Source: Armatimonadota bacterium (GTDB lineage: Bacteria; Armatimonadota; SYMT01). Taken from it: a DNA stretch of 64,000 bases. Numbering within the stretch: position 1 is the stretch's first letter; every line of letters begins with the position of its first letter. A program made the position numbers and the translations under genes. The stretch is from contig JAWLHY010000012.1 in NCBI GenBank assembly GCA_041690135.1, positions 32,001-96,000 on the forward strand, in the 5' to 3' direction. Of the stretch, positions 26,793-61,312 are shown one piece after another. The notes under the pieces were generated by a model, which worked only from the letters and a program-made list of their open reading frames with translations, was not told where the DNA came from and ran no database searches.

Positions 26793-27863
26793 ATGAATAT
26801 CTGCCAGATCATTACCCCCTCCAAGATCGCGGGGGCGGAACGTTCCACGCTCGGGCTCTGCGAGCACCTGCAGAAGGCCGGGCACCGCGTAGTTATCGGG
26901 TGCAAGGCGGGGAGCCCGCTGATCGAGGTGATGCGCGCGGCGGACCTGGACGCCCGGCCCCTGGAGATCTCCGGCAAGCTCAACCCCCAGGCGCCGTTCC
27001 GGGTCGCCCGCTTCGCCCGGGAGATGGAGGCGGCGGTCCTTCACAGCCAGTTGAGCACCGCCGCCTGGCACGCCAGCCTCGCCGCTCGCTTGCTCCGCCT
27101 GCCGTGCGTGGCGCACGTCCGGGCACTCAACAGCCCCCACTGGTACCGCCTCGCCACTCGGGTCATCGCCGTCTCGCACGCCGTAAAGGACCACCTCGTC
27201 GCACAGGGGATGCCGGCCGAGCGCATCGACGTCGTGTACAACGGCGTGGACCCCGCCCGCTACTACCTGCCCTGCACCCGGGAAGAGGCGCGTGCCCGGC
27301 TGCAGCTCCCCGCAGATGCACCCGTGGTCGGTGTGGTGGCCCACCTCACGGCCAAGAAGGGGCATGCCGTTTTCCTGGAGGCCTTCGCCGCCGCGCAGCA
27401 CCCCACCGCCGTGGCGCTGTTCCTGGGCGAGGGCGACGAGCGAGAGGCGCTGCAGGCGCAGGTCGAACGCCTGGGTCTGCAGGGGCGGGTCCTCTTCGCC
27501 GGCTTCCATAAGGACGTGCTCCCCTATTACGCGGCCATGGACGTGGTGGTGCTGCCCTCCGTCGAGGGGGAAGGCCTCCCGCGGGCGCTGCTGGAGGGAG
27601 GGCTGCTGGAGCGCGCCACGATCGGCACCCGGCTCAGCGGCGTTCCGGAGATCGTCCGGGATGGAGAGACCGGCTTCGTGGTTCCCGTGGGTGACGCTCC
27701 CGCCATGGCCGAGAAGCTACGGATTTTGCTGGACGACCCCTCCCTCCGCCAGGGGATGGGCCGGTCCGCGCGCGAGTGGGTCGGCAGCACCTTTACGGTC
27801 GAGGCCATGGTCTCCGGCACCCTGGCTACCTACGCCCGGGCCGGCGCCAGGATCGTTTCCTAA
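26793..27863 (+). CDS. glycosyltransferase family 4
   Basis: GAER, VYNGVD, KKGH, EGLPRALLE, GVPEIV. Confidence 0.93.
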   Translation: MNICQIITPSKIAGAERSTLGLCEHLQKAGHRVVIGCKAGSPLIEVMRAADLDARPLEISGKLNPQAPFRVARFAREMEAAVLHSQLSTAAWHASLAARLLRLPCVAHVRALNSPHWYRLATRVIAVSHAVKDHLVAQGMPAERIDVVYNGVDPARYYLPCTREEARARLQLPADAPVVGVVAHLTAKKGHAVFLEAFAAAQHPTAVALFLGEGDEREALQAQVERLGLQGRVLFAGFHKDVLPYYAAMDVVVLPSVEGEGLPRALLEGGLLERATIGTRLSGVPEIVRDGETGFVVPVGDAPAMAEKLRILLDDPSLRQGMGRSAREWVGSTFTVEAMVSGTLATYARAGARIVS

Positions 27864-27948
27864 ATCTTCACGCCGGCGGGAGATCGTTGGGACCGAAGGC
27901 GGAGATCCGGACATACTGAAACACGTAGGTATCTCCGGGGAATTTCAC

Positions 27949-29070
27949 ATGTCGAGACGGAAAGGGCCGGGGATCTTCCCCGTGCTTCTGATACTGGCGA
28001 CCGGGTTCCTTTCGGCCCGGACTGCCGGGGCCGCCGCGCCGGATCCGCTGGCGCGCGGGAAGGCGATCTTCCAGAGCCAGTGCGCGCGTTGTCACGGGGA
28101 CGACGGCGCCGACGTCACCAGCTATCCGAACATCAAGAGCCTGGTGGACATCACCCAGCGGATGTCTGCCCAGGACGTGATCGAAAAATCGAAGGGCTTC
28201 GCCTCGTTGCCGATCGAGGGACAGGACGCGGCTGCCCTTTATGCCTTCCTGGGCACCCTGCGTACCGGGGGCTACGCGAACCCGAACCTGCTGGTCGAGA
28301 CGAGCTGGGTTGCCGCTCATCTTCAGGACCCGGCGGTCCGCGTGGTGGACATGCGCTCCGACACGGCCTATGCGGCGGGCCACATTCCAGGCGCCATTCT
28401 CCTGGCGGAAGGGCCACTCCGCAGCGAGGATGACCGCGAGAGCTACCTTCCCAACCTGGAAGCCTTCGCGTCCCTGATGCGCACCGCCGGCATTGGCAAC
28501 GGCACGCACGTCGTCATCTACGACGACCAGGGAGGCCGCTCGGCTGCCCGCCTCTGGTACGTGCTGAACGCTTACGGCCACGAGCGAGTCAGCCTGGTCA
28601 ACGGCGGCTGGAGCAAGTGGACCGCGGAAAAGCGGCCGGTTTCAATGGAAGCGGTGGCGCCCACGCCCGTGAAGTTCCAACCGCGCCTCACACCGACCTT
28701 GAGCTGCCCATCGGCTCGCGTGCTGGCCCGGAAGCCGGGGGTGGTGTTTCTCGATACCCGCTCCGCCGCCGAATACACAGGAGAACGCCCCTCGGGTGGC
28801 GGCCAGGGACACATCCCCGGCGCCGTGAACGTGGAGTGGAAAGAGAACGTAACCGGGCCGCACCAGGTGTTCAAGACGGGACCGGAGCTGAAGAAGCTGT
28901 ACGCCAGCAGGGGGCTGACGCCGGATAAGGAGATCGTCCCCTACTGAGCGACCGGCGGGCGTGCGGCGCACGCCCTCTTTACGCTGAAGCTCCTCGGGTA
29001 CCCGAAGGTCCGCGTCTACTACGGCTCCTTTTCCGACTACACCCGCCGCAAGGCCCCGGTGGAAAAATAG
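27949..29070 (+). CDS. cytochrome c-tandem rhodanese sulfurtransferase fusion, probable selenoprotein (UGA at 28945-28947)
   Basis: signal peptide, CARCH heme motif, GHIPGA twice, EIVPY-UGA-ATGGRAA continuing in frame to VRVYYGSFSDY...EK-TAG. Confidence 0.85.
28957..28975 (+). promoter_or_regulatory. candidate bacterial SECIS hairpin
   Basis: GGGCGTGC-GGC-GCACGCCC; loop begins 17 nt after the UGA. Confidence 0.7.
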
Positions 29071-29260
29071 GAGCGCGGTCGTCCTGCCCGCCAGTCGATG
29101 GGGTTATCCGCGAATTGCGCGAATGAAGCGAAGGGGAAGAACAGTTGATAGGCAGCCCCCAGGTAGTCGGTAGGGTTCGGCTGTGCACCTCGTAGGATCA
29201 TCGGGCCTTCTCGGCCGGGATCATGTTTCAGTTCCAGGAGTGCATCCCGGCAGGTATGCC

Positions 29261-29432
29261 GTGGGGCGGGCGTCCCGCCCGTCAGAGTTCGATCACGATC
29301 ACCCAGGGATTCTGCGAGCCGCGGAGAGTGGGGCGGGCATCTTGCCCGCCTCGGCTATCGGTTAGCAAAGAGTGGCGCGGGCGTCTCGCCCGCCCGAGGT
29401 CGATCACGATTCAGATCACGATCACGATCACG
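29261..29432. repeat. cluster of three REP-like palindromes, family B, with GATCAC linkers
   Basis: GTGGGGCGGGCGTCCCGCCCG, GTGGGGCGGGCATCTTGCCCGC, GTGGCGCGGGCGTCTCGCCCGC. Confidence 0.75.
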
Positions 29433-29532
29433 AAAAGGATTCTACGTACACAAAACGGGCATCCGTCCCACCCATCCTTATCCTAATCGTAATCCTCGCC
29501 CCAATCGGCCGTAGGCCCCTTCATCCTTCGCC

Positions 29533-30718
<1,186 letters not shown>

Positions 30719-60157: not shown

Positions 60158-61312
60158 TTGTCATCTCAAGCCACCATCCGCCGTGTCGTCGCGCACGAAG
60201 TCGTCGTTCCCACCCGGCCGGGGTTCGTCAACAGCCCGGAAATGGGCAACTTTCTCGGCCACGAGTGGGACGAGATGCCGATCTGCCTGCTGGAGGTAGA
60301 GACCAGCGACGGCATTACCGGCCTGGGAGAGGTCGGGCGCGGCACGTTCCTGAAGGAGATCGATCCCTGGCTGCGACAGCTTCCGGGGCTGGAGCTCCGC
60401 GGGTTCAATCCCTCCTGCCTGCCCGCGAGCTGGCGAGCCCCTTCCCTGTACGGCGGCGCAATCGAAGAGGTCCATCCCACCCCCCTCTGGGCGCCTAACC
60501 AGCCGGTGACCTATGCGCTGGAGATGGTGCTGCTGGATTGGGCGGGGAAGCGGCTCGGCTGCCGGGCCGTCGACCTCCTGGGCGGCGCGTACCGGGAGGC
60601 GGTGCCGGTCGACTTCTGGGCCGGGCGCAAAACACCCGAAGACCTCCGCCGCACCATCGCCCAGGCGGTAGAGCTCGGGTTCCACGGGATCAAGATGAAG
60701 TCGAAGTTCGGCGACCCGGTCGCCGAGCAGGTGCGGGCGATCCGGGAAGTGGGGGGAGACGGTTTCTCGGTAACGATCGACCCGATGTACCAGTGGTTCG
60801 GTCCCAGCGAGTCGCTGGCGACCCTCAAGTCGCTCGAGCCGTTCGGCGCCGGCGTGCGCGTGGAGGACCCCTTCCCGGAGGACCGGCCGGAGTTCTGGCG
60901 GCGGGCGCGCCAGACGGTTTCGGTGCCCCTCATCTGGCATGCGCGTGGGCTGGGATCGCTGCGGCGCGCGCTCCAGGAACAGTGTGCCGACGCCTTCAAC
61001 TGCAGCGGAGGCCCGTGGGAGTTCCTGACCGCCGCGCACGCAGTTGAGGTCGCGGGCTACTCCTGCTGGCGGGGCTCTTCCATTGAGCTCGGCGTCGGCC
61101 AGGTCGCCGGTCTCCACGCAGCCGCGGCGGCGCGGTGCTGCGTGATGCCCTCCGACTTCCAGAGCGGCCTCATCCGGGAGCACACCCTCGTCACCTGGGA
61201 CTGGCCCTACCGCGACGGCGCCCTGCCCCTGCCCACCGGGCCCGGCCTGGGGGTGGAGCTGGACCGGGACGCGGTGGCCCACTACACCCGCGCCCAGGCC
61301 GTCTACGCGTAG
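60158..61312 (+). CDS. mandelate racemase/muconate lactonizing enzyme family protein
   Basis: GITGLGE, LLGG, KMK motif, EDP, PTGPGLGVELD. Confidence 0.88.
   Translation: MSSQATIRRVVAHEVVVPTRPGFVNSPEMGNFLGHEWDEMPICLLEVETSDGITGLGEVGRGTFLKEIDPWLRQLPGLELRGFNPSCLPASWRAPSLYGGAIEEVHPTPLWAPNQPVTYALEMVLLDWAGKRLGCRAVDLLGGAYREAVPVDFWAGRKTPEDLRRTIAQAVELGFHGIKMKSKFGDPVAEQVRAIREVGGDGFSVTIDPMYQWFGPSESLATLKSLEPFGAGVRVEDPFPEDRPEFWRRARQTVSVPLIWHARGLGSLRRALQEQCADAFNCSGGPWEFLTAAHAVEVAGYSCWRGSSIELGVGQVAGLHAAAAARCCVMPSDFQSGLIREHTLVTWDWPYRDGALPLPTGPGLGVELDRDAVAHYTRAQAVYA

Follow-up and report, generated by a model that had tools for sequence, protein, structure and literature searches.

The window analysed here is a stretch of 64,000 nucleotides (nt) from an Armatimonadota bacterium (GenBank assembly GCA_041690135.1, contig JAWLHY010000012.1, positions 32,001 to 96,000 of the forward strand). 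We propose that the gene at its positions 27949-29070 is one selenocysteine-decoded gene for a fusion of a heme c domain with a tandem rhodanese, a reading to which we assign a probability of about 0.9. That the product is a selenoprotein is very highly probable from the comparisons below, selenium incorporation being predicted. The gene carries recoding signals, its genome encodes the selenocysteine (Sec) machinery, cysteine (Cys) and Sec alternate at one codon among its homologues, and a cytochrome c domain and two rhodanese domains are joined in a single chain. The biochemical role of the protein would be redox-coupled handling of sulfane sulfur outside the cytoplasm. The gene had been read as a hidden selenoprotein in the initial annotation of this DNA, a reading that the machinery, the Cys/Sec pairs, the TGA-containing orthologues and the conserved hairpin all support.

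The TGA codon and its decoding

An ATG at position 27949 of the plus strand opens a reading frame whose sole in-frame TGA lies at 28945-28947, in the context CCC TAC TGA GCG ACC GGC GGG CGT. Conceptual translation of this TGA as Sec (U) yields a chain of 373 residues. U333 falls within the motif P-Y-U-A-T-G-G-R-A, and 40 more residues follow before the TAG stop at 29068-29070. The complete selenoprotein gene (27949-29070, plus strand) comprises 373 codons, with U as codon 333, plus TAG, and homologues of 358-381 amino acids (aa) align with its product end to end. The initial annotation had claimed that the frame continues for 40 codons beyond the stop of the open reading frame (ORF) track at 28945-28947; the window sequence and its translation bear this out, and all coordinates given there proved correct on re-reading. 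The UGA codon lies, as was also claimed, exactly at the catalytic Cys of the second rhodanese domain: a phmmer alignment sets the catalytic Cys of Thermus rhodanese 1UAR opposite position 333, homologues carry Cys in the same column, and nine other loci have TGA at the same codon with an open frame downstream in their DNA. Gene callers and public records cut such genes at the catalytic residue. The database product of the window's gene (P0002) is 332 aa long and ends before the TGA, and P0018 stands in the public record, at 338 aa, as a "rhodanese-like domain-containing protein"; the enzyme is therefore recorded without its active site.

The genome (9.1 Mb, 97% complete) was searched for the Sec machinery. 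Profile searches recovered selA (567 bits), selB (384 bits) and selD (370 bits), and the tRNA-Sec is present as well (67 bits in Rfam; called SeC(tca) by ARAGORN), so that the check for selA, selB, selC and selD proposed in the initial annotation found all of them above curated cut-offs. The selD gene has an in-frame TGA of its own at a K-C-G-G-U site, and the hairpin downstream in selD has the 3-nt loop GUG. Genes selA and selD and the tRNA-Sec are clustered at G000:C1:1149453-1152359 (loci L009, L020 and L001). The case shows Sec use in Armatimonadota, a combination for which the retrieved portions of the literature yielded only hydrogenases and HdrA.

Homologues were taken as the best 120 of 636 database matches at E ≤ 0.001; with the window's own truncated entry set aside, 119 remained. 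The residue in the U333 column is Cys in 94 of them, 24 end at the Tyr just before it (17 heme-fused, 7 unfused) and one is partial. Among those that stop, P0003, which is 82% identical, ends at the same residue as the window's truncated product. The Cys/Sec pairs that a search of homologues had been expected to reveal at the UGA column are thereby found, with the nine TGA loci as the other half. Close orthologues also carry the UGA, whose absence would have told against a selenoprotein: L022, from an Armatimonadota metagenome-assembled genome (MAG), and the metagenome contigs L054 and L055 encode heme-fused orthologues with TGA at the same codon. The tails after the TGA are 40-41 codons long in L034, L022, L054 and L055 and end at the C-terminal motif that the Cys forms also have (PVEK or PVDR in L022, L054 and L055); these four Sec loci with conserved open tails are 63-66% identical in protein. 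The other TGA loci (L072, L073, L088, L112, L089 and L131) are more distant tandem rhodaneses. They match the query only from about residue 104-109 on, with no heme-domain match seen, carry Y-U-Q-x-G-x-R at the catalytic column and have hairpins of their own, which in four of the six are shifted by one codon and have the loop GGT.

Within the window's own family, a homologue occurs in all six other genomes, with TGA in one (G005) and a full-length Cys form in three. selA was found in each of the five genomes searched; the two forms therefore alternate among organisms that make use of Sec. The window's genome itself also encodes a Cys-type tandem rhodanese paralogue (G000:C10:69856-70704); its identity is 42% over residues 114-372, and it shows no match to the heme domain. 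A quick maximum-likelihood tree was built from the rhodanese region with 117 rows; the window's duplicate was left out, as were three rows covering under 190 residues of it. The Sec/Cys state changes at least 8 times in this tree. P0003, a Sec form with 83% identity to the window's protein across the tree columns, is its partner (support 96). A Cys form, P0004, is sister to the pair (support 95), and the three stand apart from the main clade of Sec forms (19 rows, support 99).

Downstream of the codon, a selenocysteine insertion sequence (SECIS)-like stem-loop occupies 28948-28984 of the plus strand. Its core is a perfect 8-bp stem, GGGCGTGC (28957-28964) paired with GCACGCCC (28968-28975) around the loop GGC (28965-28967), and the outer pairs are weaker. 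The core spans 28957-28975 and starts 9 nt past the TGA, as the initial annotation had described for a perfect 8-bp hairpin with a G-containing loop. In a scan of the window's plus strand, perfect 8-bp hairpins with loops of 3-8 nt begin at 17 of 64,000 positions, and 0.28% of positions have one beginning 5-20 nt after a codon. Two of the 642 TGA trinucleotides on this strand, at 28945 and 60696, have such a hairpin 5-20 nt downstream. The one at 60696 was considered as a second Sec site and rejected; it is out of frame within an ordinary ORF (60158-61312), and its hairpin is taken as chance.

Comparison between loci is more informative. Each of the 10 distinct Sec loci forms a hairpin whose 3-nt apical loop begins with G and lies 17-20 nt past the UGA. 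The 45 nt that follow the codon have a mean minimum free energy of -18.7 kcal/mol in these loci; in 68 Cys loci of the same G+C the mean is -12.8 (p = 4e-6 by a one-sided Mann-Whitney test, which overstates the case because the loci are kin). In six Sec loci that share a register, 91.7% of stem cells pair. The figure is 78.5% after shuffling, where none of 500 replicates came as high, and 25-67% when the partners are slid. Two of the eight stem pairs show compensatory change on both sides, with the encoded amino acids changing too. The hairpin is conserved, with compensatory changes, in the Sec loci only. A small apical loop containing G is given as a hallmark of bacterial SECIS elements, and used as a criterion, in the available part of the Sargasso Sea selenoproteome study (PMC1088965); the present element is likewise a stem-loop 3' of the UGA with a small, G-containing apical loop, conserved in Sec orthologues. 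One Cys-form homologue (L040, from position 2191 onward; genome G004) keeps seven of the eight SECIS-like stem pairs at the same offset, and this near-intact stem would perhaps fit a recent conversion of Sec to Cys.

Architecture of the heme c-tandem rhodanese fusion

The N-terminus resembles a signal peptide (27949-28035, plus strand; about residues 1-29), with a basic n-region, a hydrophobic core and an Ala-rich end. From this leader, read by eye, and from the low predicted local distance difference test (pLDDT) values of 51-60 over residues 1-30, the protein is most likely exported across the cytoplasmic membrane. The leader is followed by a monoheme, class-I-like cytochrome c domain (28045-28263, plus strand; residues about 33-105), which is modelled as helical with a pLDDT of about 90. 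Pfam Cytochrom_C (PF00034) matches residues 35-82 with 31 bits against a cut-off of 21.3, and the heme-binding motif CARCH occupies residues 45-49 (28081-28095). Two marks of a class I c-type cytochrome, a CxxCH motif and a Pfam score above the cut-off, are present. Among 36 fused sequences, C45, R47, C48, H49, G50, G53, D55, Y59, S81, F84, L97 and L101 are invariant, and K63 is kept in 35. The genome also holds cytochrome c maturation genes (PF01578, three hits above cut-off).

The remainder of the chain is a tandem rhodanese, to which the Pfam Rhodanese model assigns 139 bits in two stretches of the read-through protein. Domain 1 (28300-28629, plus strand; residues 118-227), the best Pfam stretch, is non-catalytic and aligns with the N-terminal domain of 1UAR. 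Domain 2 (28711-29046, plus strand; residues about 255-366) is catalytic and whole only when the TGA is read through. An AlphaFold2 model computed from a 70-sequence alignment has a pLDDT of 92.5 and a predicted template modelling score (pTM) of 0.84, with only residues 1-30 falling to the low values given above. In a Foldseek search of the PDB its top match is 1UAR (E 7.5e-27, template modelling score (TM) 0.89 on the target, 38% identity); the best hits also include Azotobacter RhdA (1E0C), CysA2, CysA3 and SseA of M. tuberculosis, and TST/MST from cattle and humans. Pfam and the fold matches to 1UAR, 1E0C and 3HWI agree on a pair of rhodanese domains, of which the C-terminal one holds the catalytic residue; none of the PDB hits listed is, judged by title, a cytochrome-rhodanese fusion. 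The best NCBIfam model, 3-mercaptopyruvate sulfurtransferase (NF008557), scores 134 bits against an equivalog cut-off of 250, and the protein is therefore a relative of SseA and no equivalog of it. The architecture described in the initial annotation, a CARCH heme site and a signal-like N-terminus on a rhodanese, is thus confirmed by Pfam and the model, and by eye as far as the leader is concerned.

Relatives that lack the heme domain also begin with signal-like peptides. This suggests that the family as a whole is extracytoplasmic and that the heme domain sits as an insertion between leader and rhodanese. In two unfused relatives, P0034 and P0036, the first helix of the heme domain (R-G-K-A-I-Y) is joined straight to the start of the rhodanese, as though the heme-binding core had been cut out precisely. 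A search with the heme domain and the domain junction against 1.84 billion representative proteins gave 452 matches at E ≤ 0.001 and five at E ≤ 1e-30, and nine of ten weaker single-stretch matches are rhodanese proteins too according to a Pfam scan. Among the matches is, by eye, a distinct, distant family of cytochrome c-rhodanese proteins of 330-415 aa (P0156, P0159, P0163, P0167, P0173, P0174, P0209, P0216 and others). Its C-terminal rhodanese-like domain appears on inspection to have no catalytic Cys, and the family would then be a probably non-catalytic version of the same architecture.

Proposed function and competing readings

We propose the following course of events. SelB and tRNA-Sec would decode the UGA at 28945-28947 as Sec, directed by the stem-loop 9 nt downstream. 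The N-terminal peptide would send the 373-residue precursor across the cytoplasmic membrane, and CARCH would receive covalent heme c outside the cytoplasm. In the mature protein a monoheme cytochrome c domain would be packed against the tandem rhodanese, with Sec in place of Cys as the nucleophile in the six-residue loop U-A-T-G-G-R. Thiosulfate or polysulfide would donate sulfane sulfur to Sec333, giving a Se-S adduct comparable to the Cys persulfide of rhodaneses, and chemistry of this kind at Sec333 is somewhat probable. The fused heme might pass electrons between the respiratory chain and the adduct, which would then be resolved without a thiol co-substrate; reductive release of sulfide would be the favoured direction. 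This coupling of heme redox to Sec chemistry is put forward tentatively, at odds clearly below even. In its boldest form, which we consider rather unlikely, the protein would be a minimal heme-Sec enzyme in a single polypeptide, whose Met-less heme c beside the Sec binds or reduces the substrate or the Se-S adduct. A rhodanese scaffold would then serve as a periplasmic reductase (or oxidase) of thiosulfate or polysulfide.

Several results weigh against the proposed gene and its function. The conserved Met or His expected as sixth heme ligand in a class I c-type cytochrome is lacking, as no such column besides H49 exists among the 36 fused sequences; the best Met column (72) is filled in 11 and the best His column (100) in 15. 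It follows that the heme either has no sixth ligand, has an unusual one (Lys or Tyr) or receives it from elsewhere, and the heme domain is in this respect atypical for a simple electron-transfer cytochrome c. Sec is more frequent in fused than in complete unfused forms by raw counts (18 of 35 against 5 of 66), but an independent-pairs test found no association between Sec and fusion in five pairs on well-supported branches (sign-test median p = 1). The raw enrichment was therefore rejected as evidence for heme-Sec coupling, and the data do not show heme and Sec cooperating. No conserved neighbourhood, and no functional clue from one, was found in four orthologous loci. The folding energy of the 61-nt hairpin stretch is unremarkable at 64% G+C (z = -1.17; 27 of 200 shuffles fold equally well or better), and the significance of the hairpin therefore rests on the comparison with other loci. 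Finally, an Rfam scan of 27800-29600 (E up to 10) gave no family match, only four hits far below gathering scores.

With regard to the heme ligand, the Met that serves cytochrome cy falls opposite residue 82, which is variable, in an alignment that is very weak. C253, H145 and H211 were considered as fusion-specific heme ligands and discarded, being equally conserved in unfused relatives. The sub-threshold Rfam hits (mir-2010, gntR-DTE, Ms_AS-8 and IS1222_FSE) are taken as chance.

The principal alternative accepts a genuine selenoprotein but sees in it a plain, non-redox thiosulfate/polysulfide:acceptor sulfurtransferase or sulfur carrier, whose cytochrome c domain docks, senses or binds a ligand such as sulfide or cyanide. 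Signal peptide and catalytic loop are both retained in close relatives (55-68% identical) without the heme domain, and the rhodanese therefore works without the heme domain. The tree calls for 17 or more changes of fusion state, two relatives keep just the first helix of the heme domain, and the lack of a conserved Met/His sixth ligand and of an independent Sec-fusion association point the same way. On the other side, CxxCH and several other heme-domain residues do not vary in any of the 36 fused sequences. Packing of the three domains is confident in the model, and the recurrence of the architecture in the second, distant family argues for a working partnership. We regard the plain sulfurtransferase as rather unlikely, with an appreciable chance of being right.

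The gene next downstream on the same strand, 462 nt away, is chrA (Pfam Chromate_transp, 291 bits), and the initial annotation had seen in it a hint at oxyanion handling. Accordingly, the enzyme might partner ChrA in the reduction or detoxification of chromate, selenite or tellurite; the rhodanese-like protein ExtH belongs to a selenite/tellurite reduction operon, and the NCBIfam ExtH model does give a weak match. Its score (NF040901) is 44 bits against a cut-off of 200, however, and the spacer before chrA is full of GC-rich palindromic repeats. Neither chrA nor the glycosyltransferase on the other side lies beside the orthologue in any of four loci (L022, L036, L037 and L038; Pfam scans of the neighbours), where TPR, Uma2, HEAT, hemerythrin, MiaA and FAD oxidoreductase proteins were found instead. 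The chrA hint is therefore unsupported, and the partnership improbable.

A TGA that is a true stop would leave either a nonsense-mutated pseudogene or a 332-residue protein without catalytic loop, the tail and the hairpin being leftovers. Gene callers and database records treat it as a stop and the hairpin energy alone is not significant, but the same "truncation" recurs in 24 homologues, which belong to two or more clades that are well apart. Moreover, four loci that differ as much as stated above all keep an open, conserved tail of 40-41 codons, the hairpin covaries and the genome has the Sec machinery. An error of sequencing or assembly that replaced TGC or TGT, for which it speaks that a single base would restore Cys and that Cys forms are common, is contradicted by independent assemblies that agree on TGA (the Armatimonadota MAG L022, contigs L054 and L055 and six others) and by P0003 ending at the same residue. 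From the machinery, the Cys/Sec pairs, the TGA loci and the SECIS comparison together, sequencing error is therefore excluded and a pseudogene very unlikely, and the Sec-decoded fusion is retained.

Relation to known systems and genomic surroundings

Selenium-containing rhodanese-like proteins were cited as known in the initial annotation, and they are, as predictions. The "rhodanese-related sulfurtransferase COG2897" appears as a selenoprotein family with three genes in the Sargasso Sea survey (PMC1088965) and again in the table of the Global Ocean Sampling (GOS) survey (PMC2398784), and a 2026 review lists the Sec COG2897 rhodanese as "form 4" with the motif UxxG (PMC13188914). Sec in COG2897 sulfurtransferases has thus been catalogued since 2005, as prediction only. 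The present protein shares with this family the tandem rhodanese, Sec in place of the catalytic Cys, UxxG and a downstream hairpin with a small G-containing loop. It is set apart by description, as the tables in the available parts of these sources carry only Pfam or COG rhodanese labels and no cytochrome c. No cytochrome c-rhodanese fusion was found in the searched portion of the literature; some overlap with catalogued members is possible. The heme-fused form of the selenium rhodanese appears to be undescribed, and the novelty seems to lie in the heme c fusion and in a heme domain that has no conserved Met or His as sixth ligand.

The structurally characterised relatives 1UAR, RhdA (1E0C), CysA2/CysA3 and SseA share the two-domain rhodanese fold, at a TM of 0.85-0.89 on the target and with 32-38% identity, and likewise carry the catalytic residue in a six-residue loop of the C-terminal domain, but use Cys instead of Sec and lack the cytochrome c domain, and the matched chains have no signal peptide. 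Two other selenoprotein models combine a rhodanese domain with Sec and differ in motif and Sec position, and the present protein scores far below their cut-offs: the "rhodanese-related (seleno)protein" NF041203 (CxU; 33.5 against 115 bits) and the TsoB rhodanese/DsbD fusion (NF045694; 16.1 against 805 bits).

To our knowledge, heme-selenium redox chemistry of this kind on sulfur compounds is known to date solely from the unrelated multiheme MccSep. According to the available part of the 2026 report on it, MccSep (ExtKL) of Geobacter sulfurreducens is a periplasmic multiheme cytochrome c selenoprotein that reduces polysulfide and for which Sec is essential (PMC13510729); heme-plus-Sec sulfur chemistry therefore exists. 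Both proteins combine extracytoplasmic heme c with a catalytic Sec acting on sulfane sulfur, which in our case is predicted. As far as that part describes it, MccSep differs in having five hemes, no rhodanese fold and a tetrameric state, and in the absence of any sequence relationship, so that the likeness is one of working principle alone. The present results add a well-controlled case to the poorly studied Sec-rhodanese family, with ten Sec loci and the repeated Sec/Cys switches seen on the tree. The heme c-tandem rhodanese architecture appears to be unreported, and it occurs in Cys form and in the distant family too. If heme and Sec do cooperate, the protein would offer a compact model for selenium-sulfur redox chemistry at a heme, a topic opened experimentally in 2026 by MccSep.

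The gene order in the window is DUF1501, a GT4 glycosyltransferase, the selenoprotein gene, the 462-nt spacer, chrA, a helix-turn-helix (HTH) protein and an ABC-2 permease. A scan for promoters and terminators gave no promoter-like sites and two terminator-like sites within the ORF, not above the level of shuffled sequences. The spacer (29070-29530) contains four copies of a 21-nt GC-rich palindromic repeat of the GGGCGGGCGTCCCGCCC type, each followed by GATCAC-rich tracts. These repeats may be elements similar to repetitive extragenic palindromic (REP) sequences, or terminators without T-tracts.

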